Of a stretch of DNA of 64,000 nt, positions 3,211 through 41,072 are shown one piece after another (within the stretch, counting starts at the first letter, position 1; every line of letters starts with the position of its first letter). The notes under the pieces were generated by a model. That model did not search any database. It was not told the origin of the DNA and saw only the letters and a list, made by a program, of their open reading frames with translations. Both the position numbers and the translations under genes were made by a program. Origin of the DNA: Candidatus Tayloriibacteriota bacterium (GTDB taxonomy: Bacteria; Patescibacteriota; Minisyncoccia; Phycocordibacterales; CAIRYW01); assembly GCA_028286725.1 (NCBI GenBank), contig JAQBQZ010000013.1:15216-79215 (forward strand), in the 5' to 3' direction.

Positions 3211-3256
3211 AAGGATTGAATTAATCAGATTTTCTGATATAGTATCCAAATATAGA

Positions 3257-3329
3257 GGGCGATTAGCTCAGTTGGTAGAGCAATTCATTTACACTGAAAA
3301 GGTCACAGGTTCGAGTCCTGTATCGCCCA
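3257..3329 (+). tRNA. tRNA-Val (anticodon TAC)
   Basis: Cloverleaf folds cleanly. Acceptor GGGCGAT/ATCGCCC, D-arm GCTC AGTTGGTA GAGC, anticodon stem with loop TTTACAC, T-arm ACAGG TTCGAGT CCTGT, discriminator A. No encoded CCA. Confidence 0.85.
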
Positions 3330-3382
3330 CAAAAATACAAAAAACACTTAGAATATCTAAGTGTTTTTTGTATTTTTGTGGG
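3326..3382. terminator. perfect palindrome with 26-bp arms directly abutting tRNA-Val; terminator-like
   Basis: cccacaaaaatacaaaaaacacttag / ctaagtgttttttgtatttttgtggg around a 6-nt centre. The left arm begins with the tRNA CCCA end. Confidence 0.6.
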
Positions 3383-3424
3383 CGATAGCAAGTGCGGGGC
3401 ACTTGCGTACAGGACTCGAAAACC
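3383..3424. repeat. inverted partial copy of the tRNA-Val 3-prime half, interrupted by a 20-nt hairpin
   Basis: gggcgata [gcaagtgcggggcacttgcg] tacaggactcgaa is the reverse complement of ttcgagtcctgtatcgccc with a hairpin inserted. Confidence 0.55.
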
Positions 3425-3556
3425 TTTTGAGCCTAAAATTGATTTCAAGAAAATTTTAGCCAAAAGGTGTACTGCGACTGTAAGTCGAGAGTTCCTGGTA
3501 CAGGACTCAAACATAAAAAAACTGGGCTTGATTGTTCATCAGCCCAGTATAATAGT

Positions 3557-4039
3557 TCATTTAAAAACAACCTCAAACCAAAATATCGCGGTCCATTCGA
3601 TTGGAGTGGTCAGATCTTTTGCTTCAAATCTTTGTTCTGTGAAATTTGGTATGTAGTTGGATCTACCCTCAAAACATCTGATTCTCAAAATCTCACCATT
3701 TGGTTTGTAACGAACATTTCTGACGAGGTAGACACTTCCATAACGCACCGCTTCTTCTGCAACCTTTCTCGCTAAACTTTCATCTGTAATGTATCGGATC
3801 CTTGCAGCTCCCGCTAAGCTTTTTCTTAGCAATTTAAGATGATTCGATGAAGGTGGCAACCAATTAAGTGTGTAGCGATGGGTGGTGGGATTACCGGGGA
3901 GTAGGAGACAGTTTTCGAGCGGGACAAAAATCCTTCCCCCAATCTCGATTCGCGGTTTTCCGTCAGTTCTACCATGAAAAAAATTATTTGCTTCTAACAT
4001 AGATTCCTTTCTGTTGATTTTCTTTCGAAATATTGTCAC
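3557..4039 (-). CDS. hypothetical protein, convergent on tRNA-Val
   Basis: 160-aa ORF; family not recognised. Confidence 0.4.
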   Translation of the reverse strand: MTIFRKKINRKESMLEANNFFHGRTDGKPRIEIGGRIFVPLENCLLLPGNPTTHRYTLNWLPPSSNHLKLLRKSLAGAARIRYITDESLARKVAEEAVRYGSVYLVRNVRYKPNGEILRIRCFEGRSNYIPNFTEQRFEAKDLTTPIEWTAIFWFEVVFK

Positions 4040-4168
4040 TACTCCCTTGCATAGTCAATCTAATTTTGAATAATAAAACATAATTTATATATTTATCCTT
4101 ATTTAATATGTCTTAAATACTGTTGAAATTATTTTGACAACAAACTCTATTTTTGCTACTTTAGAATC

Positions 4169-4936
4169 ATGATCGAACAAAAACTCAAGCAAATAGGATT
4201 GTCGGATAAGGAAATATCAGTGTTTCTTTGTGTTTTGCAGTACCAAAAAATCACTCCTGCCAAGGTATCAATGATTACAAAAATAAACAGGCCAACTGTT
4301 TATAGTGTTTCAAAAGAACTTTCTTTCAAAGGATTGATTGATTTTGATGAAGCCGGATCTTCAAAGTATCTCGTATCTCTTGGTGAGGGAGCTCTCGAGA
4401 ACATCACAAAGCTACAGGAGGCGAAGATTGTGCAAATCAAAAAGGACTTGCCAACAATTGTAAAAGAACTTAAACAATTACCAAAGCAGGGTAAGTATTC
4501 GATTCCAAAAATTCGTTTTGTTGATGAATCTCGACTAAGAGAATTTCTGATCAGTGAATCTTCTAAATGGGCGGACAGTGCGGAGGCTCATGATAAAACA
4601 TGGTGGGGCTATCAGGATCACACATTGCTTGAACACTACGAGGACTGGGCAGATCACTTTTGGACAAAATTTCCAAAGGATATAGTTTTAAATCTATTGA
4701 CAAATAAAAAACCTGTTGAGACAAAGGTTATGAAGAGTAAAAAATATAAATCTCTACGAAATATTCGTTATTGGAAAGGTGTTAATGAATTCACTTCTAC
4801 ACATGTAGTGGTGGGGGATTATGTGCTTATGATTGTGACAAGGGAACATCCTCATTATCTTGTGGAGATTTATGACAAAATGATGGCAGAAAATTTACGA
4901 AACTTGTTTAAAGGCATCTGGGAACAGATATCTTAA
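4169..4936 (+). CDS. TrmB-family transcriptional regulator (winged-HTH N-terminus)
   Basis: N-terminal LSDKEISVF...ITPAKVSMITKINRPTVYSVSKEL resembles a TrmB HTH. Confidence 0.5.
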   Translation: MIEQKLKQIGLSDKEISVFLCVLQYQKITPAKVSMITKINRPTVYSVSKELSFKGLIDFDEAGSSKYLVSLGEGALENITKLQEAKIVQIKKDLPTIVKELKQLPKQGKYSIPKIRFVDESRLREFLISESSKWADSAEAHDKTWWGYQDHTLLEHYEDWADHFWTKFPKDIVLNLLTNKKPVETKVMKSKKYKSLRNIRYWKGVNEFTSTHVVVGDYVLMIVTREHPHYLVEIYDKMMAENLRNLFKGIWEQIS

Positions 4937-4958
4937 TCCGTGTTATAATACTCATATT

Positions 4959-5882
4959 ATGATTACAGCATCAATTCTGACCATCTTTGGTCTCGCATTA
5001 TTCGAAATCATTTCAAGTGCCGACAACGCCATTGTTAACGCGGAGGTCCTCGAAACTATGTCTCCAAAGGGAAGAAGGTGGTTTCTTATTTATGGAATAC
5101 TCTTTGCCGTTTTTGTTATTCGAGGACTTCTTCCTTGGGTTATTATTTATGCGACAAATCCACAGCTCGGATTTATTGGTGCACTCACTGCAACATTCTC
5201 TAATGATCCAATAGTCGCAGAATCTATCCATCAATCAGCGCCGATCCTTATGGCGGGAGGTGGAGTATTTCTTGTTTTTCTTTTCTTTCACTGGCTTTTT
5301 CTTGAGAAAAAAACATATGGACTTGTAGGTGAAGCATTCTTTCATCGCCAAGGAGTTTGGTTCTTTGCTGTTGTATCAGCAATACTTGCAGCTGTCGTAT
5401 GGGAGGCTCTCAAAGTTGATCCCATGATGGCATTTGGCGCTGTTGTTGGTTCGACTGCATTTTTTATCACTCATGGATTCAAAGAGAATGCAGAAAAGGC
5501 GGAAAAAGATCTCCTTCATGGAGCATCAAATAAATCTGACTTGAGTAAGATCCTTTATCTCGAAGTTATCGATGCAACGTTTTCTATCGATGGTGTCCTT
5601 GGTGCATTCGCATTTACACTTTCTGTGCCACTCATTCTTATCGGTAATGGTATTGGCGCACTTGTACTTCGAAAGCTTACTATTTCAAATGTTGAGAATG
5701 TAAAGAAATATATATTCCTCAAAAACGGTGCGATGTACTCGATATTTTTCTTGGGAGTAATCATGCTCCTGCACGCATTCCACTACGATCTTCCTGAATG
5801 GGTTTCTCCTGTTGTGACTTTTGCTACTGTTGGATATTTCTTCCTCAAATCTCATTATCATCTCAAGGCACAAAACATTTAA
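4959..5882 (+). CDS. TerC/DUF475-family integral membrane protein
   Basis: SADNAIV motif near the N-terminus; multiple TM helices. Confidence 0.5.
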   Translation: MITASILTIFGLALFEIISSADNAIVNAEVLETMSPKGRRWFLIYGILFAVFVIRGLLPWVIIYATNPQLGFIGALTATFSNDPIVAESIHQSAPILMAGGGVFLVFLFFHWLFLEKKTYGLVGEAFFHRQGVWFFAVVSAILAAVVWEALKVDPMMAFGAVVGSTAFFITHGFKENAEKAEKDLLHGASNKSDLSKILYLEVIDATFSIDGVLGAFAFTLSVPLILIGNGIGALVLRKLTISNVENVKKYIFLKNGAMYSIFFLGVIMLLHAFHYDLPEWVSPVVTFATVGYFFLKSHYHLKAQNI

Positions 5883-5883
5883 G

Positions 5884-6609
5884 GTGAAAGATATTAAAAT
5901 TCTCTTCGAAGACAATGATATTGTAGCGTTGAACAAGCCTGCGGGTATTGTTGTTCACGGTGATGGCAAGATGAAAGACAAAACAATCTCTGATTGGGTA
6001 GTCAAAAAATATCCTGAAACAAAAGATGTAGGGGAGTCTATTGAGCTTGAAAGTGGAGAGATGATAGACCGACATGGGATTGTACATAGACTCGACAAAG
6101 ATACTTCGGGTGTGCTTTTGATTGCAAAAACTCAAGAGGGATATCTGCATCTCAAAGCACAATTCAAAGAACGAAAGATCAAAAAAACTTACAACGCATT
6201 TATTTATGGAAAGATGAAAGACGAGAGAGGAATTATCAATCGTCCGATCGGACGAGCGACAGGTAGTGTGCGCAAGTGGGCAACAGGCAACAAGACTCGA
6301 GGAGAGCTTCGAGAGGCTGTCACGAAGTTTAAGGTGGTGCAGAATGCGATGCCAGCGTCTCTCTTGGAGCTTTGGCCTCAGACTGGGCGAACACATCAGA
6401 TCCGTGTGCATATGCAGGCCCTGGGGCATCCAGTGGTCGCTGACTCTCTCTATGCTCCGAGTCGTGAAGCGGTGTATGGATTCAAAAGACTTGCACTTCA
6501 CGCGAGAAGACTGATATTTAATGATCTAAAAGGCGGTCTCATTGAGGTGGAGGCACCTTTTCCAAGTGACTTCAAAGACGCTATGGAGGAGATCGGGATC
6601 AAGATATAG
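5884..6609 (+). CDS. RluA-family pseudouridine synthase
   Basis: ALNKPAGIVVHG and HRLDKDTSGVLL (catalytic Asp motif). GTG start at 5884 assumed; the ORF is open from 5821. Confidence 0.7.
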   Translation: MKDIKILFEDNDIVALNKPAGIVVHGDGKMKDKTISDWVVKKYPETKDVGESIELESGEMIDRHGIVHRLDKDTSGVLLIAKTQEGYLHLKAQFKERKIKKTYNAFIYGKMKDERGIINRPIGRATGSVRKWATGNKTRGELREAVTKFKVVQNAMPASLLELWPQTGRTHQIRVHMQALGHPVVADSLYAPSREAVYGFKRLALHARRLIFNDLKGGLIEVEAPFPSDFKDAMEEIGIKI

Positions 6610-7687: not shown

Positions 7688-8623
7688 CTAATTTTTATAT
7701 ACGATCTTTGTTGTGTGTTTTACTAGTTTTTCAAATTTATCAAAAAAAGTAAGACAGATTATTGCGCAGATTATATTGAAGAGAAAATGTGCGTTCACTA
7801 TTTGCTGAGTCTCGTCTGTGCTTATGATTTGGAGGAGCGACATGAATGGGTCTATAAGTGGAATGAATATTGCAACTCCAATAATATTAAAAAGTACTTG
7901 AGCTATCGCCACTTTCTTTGCTTCAAAAGCGGCACTTGTGCTTGCAATGATAGCTGTAAATGGAGAACCAATATTTGAGCCAAGCATAAATCCGATTGCG
8001 GCCGGGAGAGTGATAAGTCCCTGAGCGCCGAGAATGATTATAACTCCAGTGAACACTGAACTTGATTGAAGTATCGCTGTGATGATCGCTCCTGCGACTA
8101 TTGCCTTGTATGGATTCGACATTGCGACAAGAATGTTTTGGAAATCGACATTATCTTTAAGCGGAGAAACTATATTTGAAATAATAAAGAGCGAAAGGAA
8201 TATGATTCCAAAATAAAAGATGGCTTTGCCGTATCTTTTGAATCGAGTTTTCGTGTGAGAAATAATAAATCCAGCGATCACAATGATTGGTGCAATATAT
8301 GTCATGTTGAGAGCGATGAGTTGGGCACTGATCGATGGGCCAATATTGGCACCAATCACCACACCGAGCGCGTTTCGTGATGTGATGATACTTGCGTTTA
8401 CGAGGCCTACGAGGATAACTGTGGTAGCGGTAGATGATTGAAGGATGGTTGTGATAAGTGTGCCACTCAATGTCCCTTTGATCGGCGTATTAGTCCAATT
8501 ATTTAAAATATTTTTAAGCTTATCGCCAGCAACTCGCTGAATTTGGTGGCTGAATTTTTGAACAGCAAAGAGAAATACGATAATGAGAGAGAAGACTGTT
8601 GTAATGATCGTGCTTGTATCCAT
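7688..8623 (-). CDS. Na/Pi cotransporter family membrane protein (NptA/YjbB-like)
   Basis: Duplicated QSSTATTVILVGL / QSSSVFTGVIIILG motifs. Confidence 0.55.
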   Translation of the reverse strand: MDTSTIITTVFSLIIVFLFAVQKFSHQIQRVAGDKLKNILNNWTNTPIKGTLSGTLITTILQSSTATTVILVGLVNASIITSRNALGVVIGANIGPSISAQLIALNMTYIAPIIVIAGFIISHTKTRFKRYGKAIFYFGIIFLSLFIISNIVSPLKDNVDFQNILVAMSNPYKAIVAGAIITAILQSSSVFTGVIIILGAQGLITLPAAIGFMLGSNIGSPFTAIIASTSAAFEAKKVAIAQVLFNIIGVAIFIPLIDPFMSLLQIISTDETQQIVNAHFLFNIICAIICLTFFDKFEKLVKHTTKIVYKN

Positions 8624-8702
8624 GTGTGTTTTTGTTCATATTATTGTATCAGAAAAACAAAAAGTTGAAATTATCTCAAATTTTAGTAGTATAGGCTCTA
8701 AT

Positions 8703-8786
8703 GCGCGGGTGGCGAAATTGGTAGACGCACTACCTTGAGGTGGTAGCGCCCGTAAGGGTATGGAAGTTCGAGTCTTCTCTCGCGCA
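8703..8786 (+). tRNA. tRNA-Leu (anticodon GAG), long variable arm
   Basis: Acceptor GCGCGGG/CTCGCGC with one G-U pair, 3-bp D stem, anticodon loop TTGAGGT, variable arm CGCCCGTAAGGGTAT, T-arm GGAAG TTCGAGT CTTCT, discriminator A. Confidence 0.8.
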
Positions 8787-8801
8787 CAAAACGGTATTTC
8801 A

Positions 8802-8827
8802 AAAAAGAGCCCTGCGGCTCTTTTTTG
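8802..8827 (+). terminator. terminator after tRNA-Leu
   Basis: aaaaaagagccctgcggctctttttt. Confidence 0.6.
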
Positions 8828-8956
8828 CGTTTTGTGCGAGCCGGAATATATGGCTTTGCCATAATGAGGCGGGGTCGCAAGTACTTAGTAGAATTCAAGC
8901 GAAGCGAAGAATTATACTTAGTAACTTGTGACCACAAAATATACAAAAAACTGTAA

Positions 8957-9005
8957 GTTTCGAGTTCTTCTCTATAAGACTGTGCCCGAGTCTTCTCTCG
9001 CGCAC
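8957..9005. repeat. two tandem partial direct copies of the tRNA-Leu 3-prime end
   Basis: ttcgagttcttctct ... ccgagtcttctctcgcgcac, against tRNA ttcgagtcttctctcgcgcac. Confidence 0.6.
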
Positions 9006-9188
9006 CCTTGTATTCTTTACCCATGTTGACCACAAACCTTCTCACTTTCCTGCATTTATGTCCCAATTTTCTCCCTCGCACCCCAACCTCTCCCTCCCTC
9101 GTATACTTATCCATAGGTCGCTGTATTACCAGGCTTAATTTTCTTTATATTCAAAATTTCAATTAATCTAACAAAATCAATAAAACTT

Positions 9189-9842
9189 ATGTCAAAAAAA
9201 CCTACAATAGTAACATTAACCGCCGCCATCCTTATCGTCACTAGTGCTACATTCACAGATAGAGTATTTGCCTCTACTTCTAATCCTTCAATACAAAAAG
9301 TCGAACATATTAAACATTTGGCGAAAGAGAATGGGGTGGTAGGAACTGTTGAATCCATATCAGGTAACATTCTAATAATAAAAGATAAAAATAATGTTTC
9401 TTATAATGTTGATGTGAGTAGTGCAAAATTATTTAAGGCAAAAGATGTCACAATTGCACTATCTGATATCAAGGTCGGAGAGAAAATATTTGCAGCAGGA
9501 ACTGTAACAAATAACACGGTTGTCGCTACAAAAGTATATGATGGTCAAAAAATAAAGACTCATTCTGGTACCAAGAAGGAATTCCAAGGAGTTGCGGGTG
9601 TCGTTACATCAATAAGTGGGCACAGTATTACTCTCACTGGCAAAGATAACATTGTGTATGTAGTTGATGCGACTAATGCAGCGATCAAAAAAGGCAGCGC
9701 AACAAGTACTGTTGATATCTCTCAAATTCAGAGCGGAGATAAGCTTTTTGTGAGAGGTGTTGTCACGGGCACGACTGTTGTTGCAACAAACATTGAAGAC
9801 GGACACAGGACTCACGTTAAAGGGTCAAAGAAAGTAAAATAA
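9189..9842 (+). CDS. secreted protein with two DUF5666-like repeats
   Basis: N-terminal signal/TM; internal duplication (GVVGTVESISGN...VVATKVYDG / GVAGVVTSISGH...VVATNIEDG). Confidence 0.55.
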   Translation: MSKKPTIVTLTAAILIVTSATFTDRVFASTSNPSIQKVEHIKHLAKENGVVGTVESISGNILIIKDKNNVSYNVDVSSAKLFKAKDVTIALSDIKVGEKIFAAGTVTNNTVVATKVYDGQKIKTHSGTKKEFQGVAGVVTSISGHSITLTGKDNIVYVVDATNAAIKKGSATSTVDISQIQSGDKLFVRGVVTGTTVVATNIEDGHRTHVKGSKKVK

Positions 9843-9853
9843 TATTTTTAGAC

Positions 9854-9886
9854 TAAATCTCCGCACCTTTAGGTGTGGAGATTTTT
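9854..9886 (+). terminator. terminator
   Basis: aaatctccgcacctttaggtgtggagattttta. Confidence 0.6.
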
Positions 9887-9913
9887 ATTTGTCTTTTGTG
9901 TTAAACTTATTTC

Positions 9914-10663
9914 ATGAAAAAAAGACATCTCGGAGTTTTAATACTTATAATTATTCTTGCGTTTGTTGCAGGATATTTGTGGCAGGTAACACACAAACTG
10001 GGAGAGCTCAAATCTTCCATTCAAGAAATCAGATTTGGAGGAAAGCAAGATAAATATGAGATAGATGCAGCATACCCAGTGATCGAATCAGGAGTGCCAG
10101 AAAACATAAAAAACAGCATCAATACAGAGCTTGAAAAGTGGGCAAGAGATGGGGCAGAAAAAAGCAAATCAGAATTTGAAGATCTTTTGAAGGATCCAGA
10201 GCTTGCAGGCTCTGATCTCGGGCTTATGTATTCAAGTACTGTGTCCGTCAAAAGCGATTTCAAAAAACTTCCGTACATCAATGTTTCTTTTGAAATCTAT
10301 GATTATTCTGGAGGGGCGCACGGGATCACCGCAGTTTCAACATTTGTCTATGACGCGAATACTGGAGAGAAAATAACTCTAGATAAAGTATTCTCTGGAA
10401 ATTATTTAAATACGCTTTCAACGCTCTCGCTTGCCGAGCTCAAAAAAACAGATCCAAAACTTGAGACATATAGTTTTGCGGAAGATGGGACAAAGCCTGT
10501 GGCTGACAACTTCCAAACATGGACTCTCGAACCTGATGGAATACATTTTGTGTTTAGTGATTATCAGGTTGGTCCATACTCTAGCGGAAGACCAGAGATC
10601 GTACTTTCTTATGAATCGCTAAATAGCGTTCTTAATCCAGAATTCAAGAAATCTCTTTATTAA
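9914..10663 (+). CDS. membrane-anchored DUF4163/DUF3298-type protein
   Basis: N-terminal TM; YPVIESGVPENIKNSINTELEKWA and SGGAHGITAVSTFVYD motifs. Confidence 0.5.
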   Translation: MKKRHLGVLILIIILAFVAGYLWQVTHKLGELKSSIQEIRFGGKQDKYEIDAAYPVIESGVPENIKNSINTELEKWARDGAEKSKSEFEDLLKDPELAGSDLGLMYSSTVSVKSDFKKLPYINVSFEIYDYSGGAHGITAVSTFVYDANTGEKITLDKVFSGNYLNTLSTLSLAELKKTDPKLETYSFAEDGTKPVADNFQTWTLEPDGIHFVFSDYQVGPYSSGRPEIVLSYESLNSVLNPEFKKSLY

Positions 10664-10742
10664 TAGGCTATCAAAAGAAATACTAGATTTATATTGATTT
10701 TTCTGGTATAAATTGATTACTTCATATTTTTGAAGGATGTAT

Positions 10743-10814
10743 GGCGACTATAGTTTAGTGGCAAAACTCCGGTTTGTGGAACCGGTATCGAGAGTTCGAT
10801 TCTCTCTAGCCGCC
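10743..10814 (+). tRNA. tRNA-His (anticodon GTG) with encoded G-1
   Basis: Extra 5-prime G pairs with discriminator C73. Acceptor GCGACTA/TAGCCGC has one A-C mismatch. D-arm GTTT AGTGGCA AAAC, anticodon CCGGT TTGTGGA ACCGG, T-arm GAGAG TTCGATT CTCTC. Confidence 0.75.
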
Positions 10815-10829
10815 CATGATTTAAAAAAG

Positions 10830-10860
10830 AAAACACCCTCTGCTGGGTGTTTTCTTTTTT
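10830..10860 (+). terminator. terminator after tRNA-His
   Basis: aaaacaccctctgctgggtgtttt followed by a T-run. Confidence 0.6.
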
Positions 10861-10872
10861 AATCACAGCGAA

Positions 10873-11104
10873 GCTAGAGAGAATCGAATGGCGGAGGCAT
10901 ATTTTCTGAGTACAGAAAATGCCGAGCCGGTGCCCAGGACAAATACGAGCGACGGCGAGTATTTAGTCCGCGGGCGATTCTCTCTAGCCCTCGGGGACTT
11001 GCGTGAGAGAATCGAAGCCCGATTGAGCAAATTTTGAGAGTGAAGCGAATCAAAATTTCCAATCGGGATACTGGTCGTGTAACGACCGATAGCTCTCTAG
11101 CCGC
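10873..11104. repeat. cluster of four partial tRNA-His 3-prime-half copies, alternating inverted and direct
   Basis: A inverted 10873-10888 gctagagagaatcgaa; B direct 10976-10990 cgattctctctagcc; C inverted 11005-11016 gagagaatcgaa; D direct 11088-11104 cgatagctctctagccgc. B and C form a long imperfect hairpin. Confidence 0.7.
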
Positions 11105-11129
11105 TTCCCAAATCTGCTATAATTATCTA

Positions 11130-11750
11130 ATGACCACCCTCCCAATTATCGGTATGAGCCCAGGCAATAGCTACTTTAAATATGGAGTAGTAAAAGAATT
11201 ACTTCAGAAAGTTGTAGAGAAATATGGAAAAGCTGCAATCATGATTGCCGATGTTCCAGCGATTTCAACTTATGTTGCACTTGGGTATCCTCAGAATAGA
11301 GCAAGAAGGGATAAAGCTCTTCCTCAAGGTAATGCGCTCAAAAATAAAGTTAAGAAAGCTATGGTTGAATTAGGCTACAGCGCAGATCAAGTGATAATTA
11401 TTGATTGGAAAAATCAAATTGAAAATAATTCAGAATACAAAGAAAAATATAGTTTGATAGAAGGGTTGTATCAAACCAATTCTTTGTTTCAAAACGCTGC
11501 AGACGCTACGACAAAAGGTATATTGGCTGGCGCAGGCGAGGAGATTCTTGATTTACCTGATTCAATAAAAATCGCTGCGCATTATCTCTTGGCAGAGATC
11601 GCTTTTATGGAATTTGCTCCAGACTTTTTGAAAGTAAAAAAGGCTACATATATTTACCATAGAAGCTGGCCAGTATTTGAAAGTTATATAGACGGGAAGT
11701 TTGATGATAAATCAAAAGATTATTTAGGATTTGAGATTATTGAGATTTAA
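11130..11750 (+). CDS. tRNA-dependent cyclodipeptide synthase (CDPS, AlbC-like)
   Basis: GMSPGNSYF pocket motif (AlbC has GISAGNSYF, with the catalytic Ser), HYLLAEIAF (Y-x-x-x-E pair) and ATYIYH. Start at 11130 (MTTLPIIG) preferred; the ORF is open from 11034 through repeat D. Confidence 0.7.
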   Translation: MTTLPIIGMSPGNSYFKYGVVKELLQKVVEKYGKAAIMIADVPAISTYVALGYPQNRARRDKALPQGNALKNKVKKAMVELGYSADQVIIIDWKNQIENNSEYKEKYSLIEGLYQTNSLFQNAADATTKGILAGAGEEILDLPDSIKIAAHYLLAEIAFMEFAPDFLKVKKATYIYHRSWPVFESYIDGKFDDKSKDYLGFEIIEI

Positions 11751-11773
11751 AAGTTATGAGAGGAATTACATTT

Positions 11774-11791
11774 GTTCAATTCTCTCCAGCC
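11774..11791. repeat. direct repeat of the tRNA-His 3-prime end (attR-like), just after the CDPS gene
   Basis: gttcaattctctccagcc against tRNA gttcgattctctctagcc, 16 of 18 identical. Confidence 0.6.
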
Positions 11792-11817
11792 TTATTTTTT
11801 TTGCTATACTTTAAATT

Positions 11818-12411
11818 ATGGGCGACTATAAAACTATCATAAGCATTATTGCGGTTCTTCTCGTTCTAATTGGTTATTTTTCCTATATTCGCGATATTTT
11901 TAAAACAAAAACTACTCCTCATCTTTTTACGTGGTTCATTTGGTCACTTGCTGTTAGTGTTTCTGCCGCGTTACAGATCTTGGGAGGAGCGGGGGTAGGG
12001 GCGTGGACAACCATTGTGACCGCATTGGTCTGTTGTTTTATTCTCTTTCTTTCTTTTAAATATGGAGATAAAAATTATAGTAAGAGTGATATTTTATTTT
12101 TAGCTCTCGCTTTAATTTCTTTAGCGCTTTGGGTTTTTGTAAAACAGCCAGTCTGGTCAGTTGTCCTGATCGTCGCAACTGATATTCTTGGATTTGTTCC
12201 AACAGTAAGAAAGTCTTGGGATAAACCCTATTCAGAAACACTTTCAACTTATCAAATCACGGGCCTTCGTCATGCTTTGAGTATTGTTGCTCTTGAGAAA
12301 TTAAATATTCTCACACTTCTTTATCCTGTTGCTTGGACTTTGGCTAATATCCTATTTAGTATTATGCTTATAATAAGAAGAAAAATGATTAAGAGTGGAG
12401 ATCTGCTCTAG
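11818..12411 (+). CDS. hypothetical 6-TM membrane protein
   Basis: Hydrophobic helices throughout; lies outside the attR-like repeat. Confidence 0.45.
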   Translation: MGDYKTIISIIAVLLVLIGYFSYIRDIFKTKTTPHLFTWFIWSLAVSVSAALQILGGAGVGAWTTIVTALVCCFILFLSFKYGDKNYSKSDILFLALALISLALWVFVKQPVWSVVLIVATDILGFVPTVRKSWDKPYSETLSTYQITGLRHALSIVALEKLNILTLLYPVAWTLANILFSIMLIIRRKMIKSGDLL

Positions 12412-13258
12412 TTTTTTCGCTCAACCTATTTGCTTTTAAATACGCCAATGCACCATACAAGCCGGTTTCATCTCCTAGAGATGCTTTTATAATCGGTGGA
12501 ATTTTTGGAAAAATCGTTTCCATTTTTTTGAGATAGTCTTTAACTAGCGGTATAGAAATATGTGATTTTCCGAGCATCATCGAACCTCCTAAAATGATGA
12601 CATCTGGTGTCCAAAATACAATTACGTTGTTCAAACCTACAGCCAGATTTTGTGCTGCCTCATTCCATATTTTCGGATCTTTTATATTCTCTGCATCTCT
12701 GCCGTATCGATTTTGAAATGCTGTTCCTGAAATATAAGCTTCAAGATGTCCTTTACCTCTACATCCACAAAATAATCCTTCCGGCGCAATGATCTGATGT
12801 CCTGGCTCAAATCCAATGAGACCTTTCCCGATATTTTTATAAGCAATTCTCGCGCCTCCTACACCTGTTGATACTGTCAGATATGCGACAATGTTAAAAC
12901 GTTTTCCTTTCCCAAATACTGCTTCGCCCAAACCTGCTGCCACCGTGTCGTTTAGAATCTTAACAGGAACACCGATCGCTTTTTCTAAGGAATTTTTGAG
13001 TGGTTTCCCTGACCATTCTTTTTTGTTGGGTGAATTTATAATCTTCTCTCCCTTTTTGTCGAGAAGACCTGCAATGCATCCGACACATTTATCAATTTTT
13101 TCTCCTTTGGATAATTCTTTTGCAGTTTCTTTAAAGAGGGTGATCCCATCTTTGAAACTCTCTGGGGTACCAACTATCTTGGATCTCAAAATAGTCTTAC
13201 TGTTTTTGGATACGGCTAGTCGCATTTTGGTTCCTCCAATATCAAAAATGAGAATCAT
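12389..13258 (-). CDS. ROK-family sugar kinase (glucokinase-like)
   Basis: N-terminal DIGGT and a CGCRGKGHLE zinc motif. Confidence 0.7.
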   Translation of the reverse strand: MILIFDIGGTKMRLAVSKNSKTILRSKIVGTPESFKDGITLFKETAKELSKGEKIDKCVGCIAGLLDKKGEKIINSPNKKEWSGKPLKNSLEKAIGVPVKILNDTVAAGLGEAVFGKGKRFNIVAYLTVSTGVGGARIAYKNIGKGLIGFEPGHQIIAPEGLFCGCRGKGHLEAYISGTAFQNRYGRDAENIKDPKIWNEAAQNLAVGLNNVIVFWTPDVIILGGSMMLGKSHISIPLVKDYLKKMETIFPKIPPIIKASLGDETGLYGALAYLKANRLSEKTRADLHS

Positions 13259-13322
13259 AAATGCTTTGACGCATTGAAGAGAGGAATCTTACACCTTCAT
13301 TCGTTTCTGCTATACTTATCTC

Positions 13323-13691
13323 ATGAAATCCTCAACACAACCAGCGTCTCAAATCTGCTCTATTTGTCATGCGTCAATACTGCCTTCATATTATTTCTGT
13401 CCAAACTGCGGCAATAAAGTAAACACTCCACCTCTCTCAACATCAATTACAACTCAGATCGGTATCTATGCTTTTAGTATCATTCTTCCAATGATTGGTT
13501 TTATACTTGTGACTAAATGGCCCGGAGTTCAATATTTCAAATCAAAAGATGAGAAAACAAAAAAGATCGGGATCATCGCATGGTCTCTTCTTATACTTTC
13601 AACACTCATCACGATCTGGCTTGCGTATATATGGACGCTCGACACGATTCAGTCGGTAAGTCAGAGTATTAATACAGACATGGGCTTTTAA
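13323..13691 (+). CDS. zinc-ribbon-containing membrane protein
   Basis: CSIC...CPNCG followed by TM helices. Confidence 0.4.
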   Translation: MKSSTQPASQICSICHASILPSYYFCPNCGNKVNTPPLSTSITTQIGIYAFSIILPMIGFILVTKWPGVQYFKSKDEKTKKIGIIAWSLLILSTLITIWLAYIWTLDTIQSVSQSINTDMGF

Positions 13692-37541: not shown

Positions 37542-40500
37542 ATGGAAAACAATGAACTAAAGAAAAGTCCGCAAGCCCTTCGTGAAGAGGGAATACTTAA
37601 ATTCTGGGAAGAAAACAACATTTTTGCAAAAACACTTGAAAAGGATTCTCCAAAAGGAGAGTATGTGTTTTATGAAGGTCCTCCAACTGCCAATGGAAAG
37701 CCAGGAATTCATCATATTGAAGCTCGAGTATTTAAGGATGCAATCCCTCGTTACAAGACAATGCAGGGTTTTCGTGTACCTCGAAGAGCGGGATGGGATA
37801 CTCATGGACTCCCGGTAGAGCTTTTGGTTGAAAAAAACCTAGGACTCAAAAGCAAAAAAGAGATCGAAGAATATGGGGTAGTAGAATTCAACAAAAAATG
37901 CAAAGAGAGTGTGCTCCAATTCATCAATGAGTTTCGTAACTTCAGCGCACGAATCGGTTATTGGGCAGATTACAATAATGCGTTTTTTACTTTCAATAAT
38001 TCATACATTGAATCACTCTGGGGAGTGGTGGGCAAGATCAATGAACAGAATTTAATTTACAAAGACTATCGAATCGCACCATGGTGTCCTCGATGTGGAA
38101 CAACGCTTTCGTCTCATGAACTTGCTCAAGGATATCAGGATGTAAAAGATCTTTCGGTGACTGCTAAGTTTCATCTTGTTCCTGGACAGAAATGGGGAAG
38201 TGAATACGAGATAAAAGAGACAGCTTATATTTTGGCGTGGACAACAACTCCTTGGACACTCCCGGGAAATGTTGGTCTTGCTGTGGGGAATGATATTTCT
38301 TATACAGCTCTCCGTGTAGAAGGAATTTCTGAACTCTACATTGTTGCAAGTGCTCGAGTCGAGACTCTTTTTAAGGATCAAAAGATTGAGATTGTACATG
38401 GTGATATCAAAGGAAGTGATCTTGTAGGACTTGTATACGAGCCTCTTTATCCATATCTCATAAACAATATAACTGAAACTGAAAAACCAAAGCTCGAAAA
38501 TGCATTCAAGATATATGCTGCAGATTTTGTGACAACAACAGACGGTACTGGTGTTGTGCATACTGCGGTTATGTACGGATCTGATGACTTTGAACTTGGA
38601 ACAAAGGTTGGACTTCCAAAATTCCATACAGTAACTCCAGAAGGAAACTTCATCGACAATACTGACTTCTTATCTGGCAGATTTGTGAAAGATGAAGAGG
38701 TTGCGGTAGACATTATTAAAGATCTTGCACATAGAGGACTCCTTTTCAAAAAAGAAAAATACGAGCACTCATATCCGCATTGTTGGAGATGTAAGACTCC
38801 TCTCATCTACTACGCAAGAGATTCGTGGTACATCGGAATGTCAAAACTGCGCGATAAACTCGTGGCAGAAAATGAAAAAATAAATTGGGAACCAGAATAT
38901 ATCAAAGAAGGAAGATTTGGCGAATGGCTTCGGGAGATCAAAGACTGGGCTATTTCTCGTGAACGATATTGGGGCACACCGCTTCCAATCTGGATGTCAG
39001 AAGATGGGGAAAAGAGAGTGGTTATAGACAGTATTCAAACGCTCAAAAAATACACAAAGAAATCAGGCAACAACTACAAGCTCATGCGACACGGGAAGAC
39101 CGAGAAGAATGGTCTTGGTGTTTGGGATTTTGTATTGGAAGGAAGTGCATGTTTGAGCGATGAAGGAAAAGCAATGGTTCGAAAAGAAGCAGAGAAACTC
39201 AAAGGCGAAGAGTATAAACCTGATATTGTTTTTGTTTCACCGTACCTTCGAACAGAAGACACAATGCATATCGTGTGTGATGTACTTGGAATCGGTAAAG
39301 AAAATATTATTGATGATCCTCGACTTTCTGAGTGGAGTGTCGGAGAAGGGTGGAATGGCAAGCCGATCGATTCACTTTTTGATGCGATCTACAAAGATGC
39401 GGGCAAAGACTTTCATACATATCGAATGCCAGGCGGGGAAGCGTATGCTGATGTGGTAAAGCGAGCGGGAGAATTCATATATGAGATTGATAAAAAATAT
39501 CAAGGTAAAAGAATTCTTATCGTTAGTCATGCTTCGGTACTGAAGGCTCTTTTTGCTCTCGATAATCTTTTGGATATTTCTCAAATTGCAGAATTCCATA
39601 ATACATTTCTCAAATACAAAAATGCAGAAGTAAGAGATTTTGATTTCGTTCCGCTCCCACATAATGAAAAATATGAAATAGATCTTCATAAGCCTTTTAT
39701 TGATGATGTTGTGCTCGTTGATGAAAATGGAAAAGAATTAAAACGAGTGAAAGAAGTGATGGATGTATGGTTTGATTCAGGAGCTATGCCTTTTGCTCAG
39801 ATGGGGGAGAAGAGGGGCAAGGCAACTTTTCAAGAATATACAAAGAGTATTCCATACCCGGCTGACTTTATTTCTGAAGCTATCGATCAGACTCGCGGGT
39901 GGTTTTATACGCTTCATGCTGTTGGAGTGCTCATGAATCGCGGGAATGCTTACAAAAACGTGATCTGTCTCGGACATCTCTTGGACAAAAATGGAAAGAA
40001 AATGTCGAAGTCACTCGGCAATGTGGTAAACCCTTGGGAACAAATGGACAAGTATGGAATCGATGCGATAAGGCTTTGGATGTATTCAGTGAACCAGCCA
40101 GGAGAGAGCAAGAACTACGACGAGAAAACGGTAGATGAAATAAATAAAAAAGTATTCAATCTTATTGGAAATACATTTACATTCTATGAACTCTATCGAG
40201 ATAAAACTCTCGAGAATAATGAGATACCTCAGACAAAGAATGTAATGGATCTTTGGGTACTTGATCGATTGAATGATTTGGTGATAAATGTTACTCGGAA
40301 TATGGAGAGTTATAAACTCCTTGAACCGGTCCGAGACATTAAGGAATTCGTCGCAGATCTTTCTACATGGTACTTGCAGCTATCGAGAGACAGATTTAGA
40401 GATGGGGATACGGGCGCAAAGCAGACTCTTTATTTTGTATTGAAAACCCTTTCGACACTTTTGGCACCATTTGCACCCTTCTTTGCAGAAGATCTTTATT

Positions 40501-41072
40501 TAAAGCTTCGATTGGAAAATGACGCAGAAAGTGTGCATCTCGGAAATTGGCCAACAGCTACAATTGATGCTGGTGCAGATGATCGCGCAACACAAATGCA
40601 GTTCACTCGAGAGATTGTATCACTGGGACTTGATGCGAGAATGAAAGCTGATATCAAAGTGCGACAGCCGCTAGGAAAGTTGAAAGTCAAAAGTCTAAAG
40701 TCAAAAGTGGGGGAAGAATATTTAATTCTTGTAAAAGAACGAGTAAATATTAAAGAAGTTATTTTTGATGAGTCGGTTACTAATGAAGCTGAGCTTGATG
40801 TTACCATCACACCAGCACTCAAAGAAGAGGGAATTGTTCGAGAGATAATCCGAGCAGTTCAAGACTTGCGAAAGAAAAGCGGACTTACTCCGAGTGATCC
40901 GATTGTACTTCATATTGGCGCCAACGAATCTGGAAAAGATGTACTTGAAAAACCAGAATGGCTCATGATGATTCGAGATGCGGTGCTCGCAAAGAATATT
41001 GAAGTTAAAACTATAGGAGTTGGGGAGAAGATTGTGATTGATGATATTGAGTTTACAATTGCTTTAGCTTAA
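37542..41072 (+). CDS. ileS: isoleucyl-tRNA synthetase with an inserted histidine-phosphatase (PGAM-like) domain
   Basis: WTTTPWTLPGN editing domain, WAISRERYWGTPLPIW, DVWFDSGAMP, KMSKSLGN. HIGH reads GIHH. Insert at about residues 485-740 carries RHGKTEKN, VSPYLRTEDT, GGEAY, IVSHASVLKAL. Confidence 0.85.
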   Translation: MENNELKKSPQALREEGILKFWEENNIFAKTLEKDSPKGEYVFYEGPPTANGKPGIHHIEARVFKDAIPRYKTMQGFRVPRRAGWDTHGLPVELLVEKNLGLKSKKEIEEYGVVEFNKKCKESVLQFINEFRNFSARIGYWADYNNAFFTFNNSYIESLWGVVGKINEQNLIYKDYRIAPWCPRCGTTLSSHELAQGYQDVKDLSVTAKFHLVPGQKWGSEYEIKETAYILAWTTTPWTLPGNVGLAVGNDISYTALRVEGISELYIVASARVETLFKDQKIEIVHGDIKGSDLVGLVYEPLYPYLINNITETEKPKLENAFKIYAADFVTTTDGTGVVHTAVMYGSDDFELGTKVGLPKFHTVTPEGNFIDNTDFLSGRFVKDEEVAVDIIKDLAHRGLLFKKEKYEHSYPHCWRCKTPLIYYARDSWYIGMSKLRDKLVAENEKINWEPEYIKEGRFGEWLREIKDWAISRERYWGTPLPIWMSEDGEKRVVIDSIQTLKKYTKKSGNNYKLMRHGKTEKNGLGVWDFVLEGSACLSDEGKAMVRKEAEKLKGEEYKPDIVFVSPYLRTEDTMHIVCDVLGIGKENIIDDPRLSEWSVGEGWNGKPIDSLFDAIYKDAGKDFHTYRMPGGEAYADVVKRAGEFIYEIDKKYQGKRILIVSHASVLKALFALDNLLDISQIAEFHNTFLKYKNAEVRDFDFVPLPHNEKYEIDLHKPFIDDVVLVDENGKELKRVKEVMDVWFDSGAMPFAQMGEKRGKATFQEYTKSIPYPADFISEAIDQTRGWFYTLHAVGVLMNRGNAYKNVICLGHLLDKNGKKMSKSLGNVVNPWEQMDKYGIDAIRLWMYSVNQPGESKNYDEKTVDEINKKVFNLIGNTFTFYELYRDKTLENNEIPQTKNVMDLWVLDRLNDLVINVTRNMESYKLLEPVRDIKEFVADLSTWYLQLSRDRFRDGDTGAKQTLYFVLKTLSTLLAPFAPFFAEDLYLKLRLENDAESVHLGNWPTATIDAGADDRATQMQFTREIVSLGLDARMKADIKVRQPLGKLKVKSLKSKVGEEYLILVKERVNIKEVIFDESVTNEAELDVTITPALKEEGIVREIIRAVQDLRKKSGLTPSDPIVLHIGANESGKDVLEKPEWLMMIRDAVLAKNIEVKTIGVGEKIVIDDIEFTIALA

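Follow-up and report, generated by a model that had tools for sequence, protein, structure and literature searches.

The DNA that follows the valine transfer RNA (tRNA) gene in a 64,000-nucleotide (nt) stretch of a Candidatus Tayloriibacteriota contig, hereafter the window, is one unit of a conserved, Patescibacteria-wide (candidate phyla radiation, CPR) family of non-coding modules of ∼150 to 200 nt. Following the tRNA 3′ end (X), a unit consists of a terminator-like hairpin or a short GA-rich loop, an antisense copy of the acceptor strand, the hairpin P2, an antisense copy of the T-stem and T-loop, the hairpin P4, a GTACTG linker, the hairpin P5 (loop TGTAA), and finally the tRNA 3′ end again as a sense copy. 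The arms of these modules track the neighboring tRNA while the core stays conserved, and the arrangement around tRNA-Val is not due to chance. Units of this kind are found behind all three tRNA genes of the window (Val, Leu, and His).

The module behind tRNA-Val

The tRNA-Val(TAC) gene is located on the plus strand at 3257 to 3330 according to ARAGORN, or at 3257 to 3329 according to Rfam (72.5 bits). It encodes no CCA, and a promoter-like TTGAAT-16-TATAGT is found nearby at 3216 to 3243. The 3′ end of the tRNA comprises the T-loop (3310–3316), the 3′ strand of the T-stem (3317–3321), the 3′ strand of the acceptor stem (3322–3328), the discriminator A3329, and C3330. A repeat search and the folds place a perfect palindrome at 3321 to 3387, which connects this 3′ end with an antisense copy of itself through two 32-nt arms (3321–3352 and 3356–3387) that are 100% complementary around a 3-nt loop. 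Because the arms begin at 3321, the last 10 nt of tRNA-Val (TATCGCCCAC) lie inside the palindrome. The first-pass annotation, which was made by a model from the letters alone, had described a perfect inverted repeat that starts with the CCCA of the tRNA and covers 3326 to 3382; the repeat is real, and only its size had been underestimated.

The tip of the palindrome (3331–3377, plus strand) consists of an A-tract, a hairpin (AACACTTAGA-ATA-TCTAAGTGTT), and a T-rich run. Judged by eye, it resembles a bidirectional intrinsic terminator of the tRNA, with a G+C-containing hairpin and a T-run at 3342 to 3378. A simple terminator scan makes no call there because the T-run pairs with the A-tract within the palindrome. 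It should be noted that such a feature explains only the tip and not the remainder of the module.

The left arm of the module is on the plus strand and is divided into two parts. The first (GTGGGCGAT, 3378–3386) reads as the reverse complement of the acceptor 3′ strand with its discriminator and C74. The second (TACAGGACTCGAA, 3408–3420) is antisense to nucleotide 66, the T-stem 3′ strand, and the entire T-loop, and is the reverse complement of 3310 to 3322 at 13/13 positions. P2 and its linkers (A-GCAAGTGC-GGG-GCACTTGC-G, 3387–3407, plus strand) separate the two, and the 20-nt insert gcaagtgcggggcacttgcg (3388–3407) forms an 8-bp hairpin with a 3-nt loop. As a whole, the antisense copy spans tRNA positions 54 to 74 and is interrupted by P2 exactly at the T-stem/acceptor junction, in agreement with the earlier description of an inverted tRNA 3′ copy that is split by a self-complementary 20-nt insert. 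Beyond what that description had covered, the insert is the conserved P2, a P4-GTACTG-P5 core and a sense copy belong to the same structure, and the whole is a discrete unit that recurs throughout the family.

The remaining elements of the module are also on the plus strand. P4, a long hairpin with an internal loop (3421–3468), is based on the folds and on covariation across 59 copies. The GTACTG linker and the P5 hairpin CGAC-TGTAA-GTCG (3475–3487) together occupy 3469 to 3487, and the right arm (AGAGTTCCTGGTA, 3488–3500) is a degenerate sense copy of the T-loop and the T-stem 3′ strand with six mismatches. The acceptor part of this right arm has been lost; other members of the family hold a full copy of the tRNA 3′ end. 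A second antisense T-arm copy on the plus strand (GTACAGGACTCAAAC, 3498–3512, 93%) has the appearance of a leftover from one more, older unit; it directly adjoins the terminator hairpin that belongs to the minus-strand gene at 3557 to 4039. Weaker complementarity reaches the anticodon loop and the variable region of the tRNA (3288–3303 versus 3422–3437, 81% over 16 nt).

The RNA fold of 3257 to 3560 has an energy of −135.1 kcal/mol as compared to −68.5 ± 4.9 kcal/mol for shuffled sequences (z = −13.6), and a fold of the region with DNA parameters gives z = −17.5. In the best RNA structure, the T-arm and the acceptor 3′ strand of tRNA-Val pair with the downstream copy and form one long branched hairpin. 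Both the RNA and the DNA folds thereby support the composite hairpin that had been predicted from the complementarity. The Val unit is transcriptionally isolated, as it is flanked by the tip hairpin on one side and by the terminator of the minus-strand gene on the other. The sole promoter-like match that leads into it (minus strand, 3576–3549, 9/12) is at chance level and would start transcription within the terminator hairpin.

The window is matched without a difference by Logan contigs from sample SRR13312974 over 3356 to 6539 and 8730 to 13,663; these contigs leave 3293 to 3355 uncovered. Because the contigs break at 3292 and 3356, the left arm of the palindrome is without independent confirmation. 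The two break points are located inside tRNA-Val and at the first base of the right palindrome arm, and the modules probably break short-read assemblies at tRNA loci. In a search for strain-level variants, the proteins that flank the feature were carried only by the source sample. Two mechanically called minus-strand open reading frames (ORFs), at 3263 to 3514 (83 aa) and 8698 to 9114 (138 aa), overlap tRNA-Val and tRNA-Leu, respectively, together with their modules and are almost certainly not genes.

Conservation of the module across the Patescibacteria

The unit behind tRNA-His has the same scaffold as that behind tRNA-Val (CGGGGACTTGCG + TGAGAGAATCGAA + long hairpin + ATACTG + GTCG-TGTAA-CGAC + CGATAGCTCTCTAGCCGC), with arms that match tRNA-His. 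A census pattern was built from the bases common to the Val and His scaffolds and detects only close relatives of this type (type A). As TACTG and TGTAA are set parts of the pattern, finding them in every copy does not count as independent evidence. Within the window the pattern matches only the Val and His sites, and shuffled sequences give zero matches. Among 185,579 species genomes it found 33 sites, 27 of which are labelled Saccharibacteria, Paceibacteria/Paceibacterota, Parcubacteria, Kaiser-, Taylor-, or Lloydbacteria, or "Patescibacteria group". Three further sites are in "uncultured bacterium" records and one is in a metagenome-assembled genome labelled Acidimicrobiales; all four have full modules. 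The other two, in a Bacteroidales genome and a Flavobacterium, are without every other feature and look like chance matches. Metagenomes contributed 39 additional sites, and the 60 unique cores found overall are almost all from Patescibacteria. No copies of the scaffold pattern were found in the viral contigs, phage genomes, or plasmids that were searched.

The association with tRNA genes is consistent across the family. A tRNA gene is located on the same strand no more than 600 nt upstream of 47 of the 60 unique cores, and these tRNAs represent 27 anticodons and 18 amino acids. The tRNA ends 24 to 72 nt before the ACTTGCG motif in 41 of the 47, and the other six units are the second in their row. 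The antisense arm matches the T-loop and the T-stem 3′ strand of its neighboring tRNA at 12/12 positions in 37 of the 47 units, and the acceptor antisense matches at 7/7 positions in 30 of 45 members, the Val unit among them. At G·U pairs of the tRNA stems, the arm reads as the complement of the 3′ strand 25 times and as the 5′ strand itself three times. Since these positions follow the complement of the 3′ strand, the left arm is a true antisense copy and not a duplicated 5′ half. The same counts led us to reject a copy of the tRNA 5′ strands, as in a shrunken tandem tRNA, and the antisense T-loop is part of the arm as well.

The first-pass annotation had asked for a search of relatives for inverted copies. 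On related contigs, an antisense 12-mer of a tRNA's own T-arm (≤1 mismatch) is found within 300 nt downstream of 60 out of 97 tRNAs and upstream of none (0/97), while the arms of other tRNAs match in ∼2% of cases. The result holds for bystander tRNAs that were not chosen by the pattern: 16 of 49 have their own T-arm antisense 12-mer within 300 nt downstream and 0 of 49 have it upstream, and the arms of other tRNAs match in 1.5%. In many of these bystanders, arms of the same kinds enclose P2 sequence variants or a second type of core (type B). The type B core reads ...GCCGGAG-hairpin-GAGGCGGGGTCG-hairpin-CGACC and sometimes stands in tandem with type A; it was seen in the window at 8841 to 8933 and 10,889 to 10,974, and in loci L004, L005, L006, L025, and L033. 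The suspicion that a recurring architecture goes beyond accident is thus borne out by tRNA-Leu and by dozens of tRNA genes in other Patescibacteria.

At two loci (L024, ∼6440–6490, and L034, minus strand, ∼640–690 of the reverse complement), good tRNA 3′ ends with both T-arm and acceptor precede the modules, and ARAGORN makes no tRNA call there. These may be intron-containing genes of the kind reported for Patescibacteria. At two others (L012, ∼2725–2770, and L026, ∼7865–7900), the units are packed tightly between two tRNA genes, and the promoter-like TTGAGA/TTGAGT ... TATAAT of the next tRNA-Asp starts at the end of the right arm.

Fold and covariation of the core

Across 59 aligned cores, 89.7% of the pair cells of P4 and P5 are paired, as compared to 59.2% with shuffled partners. 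Double-sided changes number 322 versus 93 in the shuffles, and the covariation score is 0.699 versus 0.164, with slid controls at ≤0.19. The stem of P5 covaries, as do the distal pairs of P2, in which AGCAAGT...ACTTGCG is conserved in the family. P2 is located at the 65/66 (T-stem/acceptor) junction in every parsed copy. The helices of the module are therefore under constraint.

The complete fold is illustrated by the tRNA-Trp unit of locus L013, which has intact arms, folds in agreement with the prediction, and for which the minimum free energy and centroid structures are the same (−70.2 kcal/mol, z = −7.1). Its left and right arms form an acceptor-like helix, P1, and P2 branches off at the junction. 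P3 is T-stem-like, is lengthened by pairing of the T-loop copies, and contains one bulge; P4 and P5 close a second junction. Bulges occupy fixed places in the family: one strand has P2, and on the opposite strand an insertion of 1 to 3 nt or of 14 nt was seen by eye in many right arms.

The composition of the helices was also counted. The helix cells comprise 1080 Watson-Crick, 26 G·U, and 24 A·C pairs, so that G·U and A·C account for ∼2% each, while the acceptor and T stems of tRNAs from the same genomes contain ∼5% non-Watson-Crick pairs. This symmetry is the pattern of copied or DNA-level hairpins, unlike that of long-lived RNA helices. With G·U and A·C counts this close, the wobble pairs do not point to either strand. 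GA-rich loops (GAACGCAGTGAAAG, ACGAAGTGAAC..., and GAGTGAAGCGAA) were seen as a spacer in place of the terminator tip in L013, L022, L033, L036, and L072, and at the apex of P4 in many loci, for example at 11,039 to 11,050 of the window. Tandem G·A pairs often close those at the P4 apex, and the loop could be a protein-binding or mini-hairpin motif.

Arrays, gene cargo, and turnover of units

A more extended arrangement is found behind tRNA-His(GTG), where an array occupies 10,816 to 11,111 on the plus strand and is identical in a Logan contig. Its first unit consists of a tip (10,816–10,872), an antisense arm (10,873–10,888), and a type-B-like core (10,889–10,974). The arm, which the earlier note had listed as an inverted copy behind this tRNA, is a perfect 16-mer. 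The second unit begins with a sense copy (10,975–10,989) and continues with half of P2 (10,990–11,003), an antisense arm (11,004–11,016), P4 (11,017–11,067), ATACTG (11,068–11,073), P5 (11,074–11,086), and a right arm (11,087–11,111). Sense copies of tRNA-His are found at 10,975 to 10,989, 11,088 to 11,104, and 11,774 to 11,791. A cyclodipeptide synthase (CDPS) gene follows on the plus strand (11,130–11,750, 206 aa, Pfam PF16715; the gene call is from L075); enzymes of this family use aminoacyl-tRNAs. Behind it, a mini hairpin combines an antisense copy of the tRNA-His T-arm (11,759–11,768) with the last of the sense copies, and the segment from 11,130 to 11,791 appears to be a gene-carrying unit that terminates the array.

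The units behind tRNA-Leu(GAG) occupy 8788 to 9005 on the plus strand and were assigned in part by comparison with the tRNA-Leu locus of L025 and with other type-B cores. They include a tip with an inverted acceptor copy (8788–8840, the copy at 8828–8838), a type-B core (8841–8933), the remnant of a tip (8934–8949), and the remnant of a type-A P5 and right arm (8950–8974). A perfect 19-nt sense copy of the tRNA 3′ end is located at 8987 to 9005.

Larger arrays occur elsewhere. Behind tRNA-Glu in L006, five antisense copies, all perfect, are spread over 1.6 kb; tRNA-Tyr of L063 has an array of this kind as well. A type-B unit stands between the tRNA and a type-A unit in four loci (window His, window Leu, L025 Val, and L004 Lys), and in all four the type-A unit has had its own palindrome deleted. 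This looks like entry of the type-B unit next to the tRNA.

Units also differ between related genomes. In the genome of L025, the flanking genes are ∼70% identical to those of the window and the Val module is 94% identical, and tRNA-His has no unit and no CDPS gene downstream, as compared to two units and a CDPS gene in the window. In L068 (4196–11,790), a type-A module with perfect tRNA-Asn arms is located 7.3 kb downstream of tRNA-Asn. The intervening islet encodes a peptidase S51, an ABC transporter (ATPase, NMT1-type binding protein, and permease), a HAD hydrolase, and a 492-aa protein without a Pfam match; no integrase or recombinase is among the genes of this islet. The cores themselves are mosaic. 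P4 is 49/49 identical and P2 differs by one base between L002 (tRNA-Asp) and L023, which are from different genomes and have unrelated arms and tips, and the His core of the window shares 94% identity with the L013 core behind tRNA-Trp, with compensatory changes where the two differ. Taken together, these comparisons show that units are gained, lost, stacked, and recombined.

Apart from these loci, the window encodes an isoleucyl-tRNA synthetase (37,542–41,072, 1176 aa) in which a histidine-phosphatase domain (PF00300, residues 514–686) splits the halves of the catalytic domain. This fusion is unusual.

Terminator-like tips and preservation of the right arm

Tips equivalent to that of tRNA-Val, as defined by folding energy and a T-run, are present in 30 of 41 first-position units. 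Eight units are clearly tip-less and have a spacer of 0 to 27 nt, often GA-rich, between the tRNA and the module. The sense arm is perfect in all eight tip-less units (8/8) and in 10/30 of those behind a terminator; the corresponding Fisher test (p = 0.01) was computed on 9/11 versus 10/30. Since no terminator intervenes, tip-less units are necessarily transcribed with their tRNA. The contrast in right-arm intactness counts both for the mechanism proposed below and for an RNA-based alternative to it, and it counts against a purely DNA-level reading.

Proposed mechanism and alternative explanations

In our tentative assessment, the units could well be mobile or recombining DNA-level hairpin attachment modules of small, protein-less cassettes that are anchored at tRNA 3′ ends. 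Cassettes would join next to a tRNA gene by recombination in or near the T-loop, with an enzyme that is encoded elsewhere. A new tRNA 3′ end to replace the old one, a terminator, and a matching antisense arm would arrive with each incoming unit, and the former tRNA 3′ end would be displaced outward and become the right arm. Units could be empty, with a terminator only, or could bear genes, as with the CDPS of the window and the 7.3-kb ABC-transporter islet of L068. The antisense arm would have to match X for the site to fold, as in integron attC and CTX-phage attP. In units without a terminator, an intact sense arm would neutralize the antisense arm in the common transcript. A recombination site was among the roles suggested by the first-pass annotation, and it is the one that the evidence favors because of the arrays, the presence/absence differences, the gene cargo, and the mosaic cores; the role is inferred from these patterns rather than demonstrated. 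The suggestion that the copies are remnants of inversion at att sites found no support, as the orientation to the tRNA is fixed (47/47) and the antisense arm is better kept than the sense arm.

Several observations weigh against recombination modules. The units have no linked gene for a recombinase, transposase, or reverse transcriptase, none was found among the 20 window ORFs that were scanned, and no protein family is shared by more than 4 of the 31 loci. We know of no classical integrase system that serves 18 tRNA amino-acid families with a single scaffold. The arrays could also be explained by unequal homologous recombination between direct repeats, and two units in L020 look like diverged tandem duplicates. 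The obligatory co-transcription of tip-less units counts on the same side. So do three features of the fold: the tRNA-sense strand folds more stably in 50/60 copies, P4 is closed by tandem G·A pairs in about one third of copies, and P2 is placed where the D and anticodon arms leave the acceptor/T-stem stack of a tRNA.

These same features would suit at least equally well a cis-acting structured RNA in the tRNA 3′ trailer, the main rival, which we regard as possible but somewhat unlikely. Such an RNA could be a three-segment, attenuator-like switch, a processing site (RNase III, RNase P, or RNase Z), or a tRNA-like RNA. The antisense arm would pair either with the tRNA, and so block its folding, or with the sense arm to give a tRNA-like P1/P3 stack in which P2 takes the place of the D and anticodon arms. 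A protein or ligand would then recognize the P4/P5 core, or processing would occur at the double-stranded stretch. Consistent with this, every unit shares the strand of its tRNA and follows directly behind it, the fold comprises five helices, with strong covariation and with conserved bases that stay unpaired, P2 keeps its place at the 65/66 junction, and the tip-less, co-transcribed units are those with uniformly perfect sense arms. The processing or terminator role that had been listed in the first pass is a live rival. Against an RNA that acts in the trailer, 30 of 41 first-position units are separated from their tRNA by a terminator-like hairpin. G·U pairs are as rare as A·C pairs, unlike in tRNA stems of the same genomes; arrays hold up to five units per tRNA, and one unit is 7.3 kb from its tRNA. 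Near-identical cores with different arms, the variable presence of units between related genomes, and the lack of an Rfam family match also argue against an RNA function. 

The finding that the same core occurs with different arms would suit a guide-bearing scaffold, RNA or DNA, whose tRNA-derived arms direct an unlinked Patescibacteria protein to tRNA genes or pre-tRNAs. The conserved scaffold has variable, target-matched segments that represent both target strands, and TIGR-Tas systems, which occur in CPR bacteria, use dual spacers against both DNA strands (PMC12045711). We nevertheless consider a guide scaffold quite improbable, since the units have no linked Tas, IS110, or TnpB-like gene, the arms (7–9 plus 12–13 nt) are mutually complementary and so address the same target segment rather than adjacent ones, and the only target would be the unit's own neighbor. 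Inert scars, in which ordinary integrase-borne islands decayed at tRNA genes and template switching extended the terminator palindrome, are already disfavored and appear very unlikely. Partial tRNA direct repeats and stacking are indeed a known signature of tRNA-targeting islands (bioRxiv 10.1101/2020.12.28.424599), and the right arms and displaced palindromes do decay. A scar without activity of its own would not be expected to retain a multi-helix core that shows compensatory changes in Saccharibacteria, Paceibacteria, Kaiserbacteria, and other groups, nor to keep a perfect antisense arm in 37/47 units while the sense arm decays; template switching would overwrite P2 instead of holding it at a fixed junction, and integrase remnants were not seen. 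An assembly artefact or chance palindrome is hardly credible. Perfect palindromes can be assembly chimeras, and 3293 to 3355 is the segment without independent Logan coverage, but independent Logan contigs match the module from 3356 on and both arrays (Leu and His) exactly, the architecture recurs in more than 60 independent assemblies, and the orthologous unit in L025 is 94% identical.

No reading accounts for one scaffold that has exact arms for many tRNAs and P2 at a fixed junction. A more speculative reading, which we hold to be doubtful, is that the modules are programmable. The P2/P4/P5 scaffold would acquire ∼20 nt of the adjoining tRNA in both orientations by a templated process, and an unlinked, Patescibacteria-wide protein would read the arms. 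The result would be a cassette system without a protein gene of its own, in which tRNA genes take the role of attI and the arms serve as guides.

If the units are recombination modules, they would point to an unrecognized route of gene gain in the tiny genomes of Patescibacteria. They would also show how arms that match a target can be written into a fixed scaffold, a matter of interest for programmable DNA tools. If they are RNAs, about one third or more of the tRNA genes sampled on these contigs would have a dedicated structured partner, with bearing on tRNA maturation and control in reduced bacteria. On either reading, the units explain long non-coding gaps after tRNA genes and some assembly breaks, and they merit annotation.

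Comparison with known systems

Rfam returned no non-tRNA family at the gathering score or at E ≤ 10 for the window, or at E ≤ 0.05 for eight related loci. The only sub-threshold Rfam matches were of the miRNA-type hairpin kind on palindromes, together with one sRNA match in L020. No published description of the modules was found in the literature searched, a scope outside of which most subscription journals lie. The module family is filed as new because it fails the defining tests of the known systems compared, and it is apparently undescribed, as far as can be judged with a pattern limited to close type-A relatives.

A number of specific identities were rejected. ARAGORN and Rfam call only the three true tRNAs in the window and nothing on the modules of either strand; a minus-strand tRNA, a split tRNA, a transfer-messenger RNA (tmRNA), and a tRNA-like gene were rejected accordingly. 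A T-box riboswitch does not fit, as the modules are 3′ of tRNA genes, contain no specifier or T-box sequence, and have no Rfam T-box match at E ≤ 10. Patescibacteria tRNA genes are known to contain group I introns, and those that PMC13011429 describes are in the anticodon loop only; here the upstream tRNA is complete, only two hairpins follow the arm, and there is no Rfam intron match. By eye, ribozyme cores (hammerhead and others) gave no fit to the P4/P5 junction, and no convincing dif/Xer-like sequence was seen in the core. P5 could be taken for an anticodon loop (U-GUA-A or U-UAC-A, depending on the strand); as this loop does not change from tRNA to tRNA, it does not signal a codon or anticodon. 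The 3′ strand of P5 as part of the tRNA copy (GGTT) holds in some loci only. A primer-binding site for mature tRNA was set aside since the arm complements the genomic trailer and not the added CCA. In a miniature inverted-repeat transposable element or another element derived from an insertion sequence, the terminal inverted repeats would be uniform among copies and accompanied by a short target-site duplication; here the inverted arms vary with the neighboring tRNA, and the conserved parts of the module are internal.

Among RNA-based systems, attenuators and T-box leaders share with the modules the sense-antisense-sense segments that permit two alternative pairings, and the tRNA-like domain of tmRNA and viral tRNA-like structures share the acceptor/T-stem-like stack with a side arm. 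Unlike these, the modules are in the 3′ trailer and not in a 5′ leader, their T-loop is paired away, and most copies are behind a terminator. The IS110 bridge RNA, the tigRNA of TIGR systems, and the omega RNA of TnpB likewise combine a conserved scaffold with short segments that match both strands or the flank of a target. The modules differ in having no adjacent effector gene, in arms that cover the same stretch and pair together, and in their sizes and motifs. A TIGR-Tas array was rejected on unit size, arm length, and the lack of a linked gene; TIGR-Tas arrays are built of 36-nt units with 9-nt spacers (PMC12045711).

Repetitive extragenic palindromic elements (REP/REPIN), Rickettsia palindromic elements, and Correia elements are, like the modules, short dispersed non-coding hairpin repeats at gene 3′ ends that may terminate transcription. 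Their ends are fixed and independent of the neighboring gene, whereas the arms of the modules are rewritten for each tRNA and the modules are exclusively tRNA-linked.

The modules have more in common with islands at tRNA genes (tyrosine-integrase att sites, tycheposons, and cis-mobilizable elements, CIMEs). In both, direct partial copies of the tRNA 3′ end flank inserted DNA, a functional tRNA end is regenerated, some units contain only cargo, presence differs between related genomes, and units pile up beside the tRNA with the newest apparently nearest. The modules depart from these islands in that no integrase is in or near the units, which are ∼150 to 200 nt long and without an ORF. In addition, one scaffold serves at least 27 anticodons where each integrase serves one tRNA, and the modules hold an antisense copy of the tRNA end together with a conserved folded core.

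Integron attC sites and the CTX-phage attP(+) site resemble the modules in being imperfect hairpins that structure defines more than sequence does, with bulges at fixed places; integron cassettes are stacked and are either empty or carry a gene, and the recombinase is encoded elsewhere, which for the modules would hold by analogy. The R″/L″...L′/R′ boxes of attC (RYYYAAC ... GTTRRRY) are not present in the alignments, and the arms are copies of the host tRNA instead. Where an integron has its IntI/attI/Pc platform, the modules have none, and it is the tRNA gene that occupies the position of attI.

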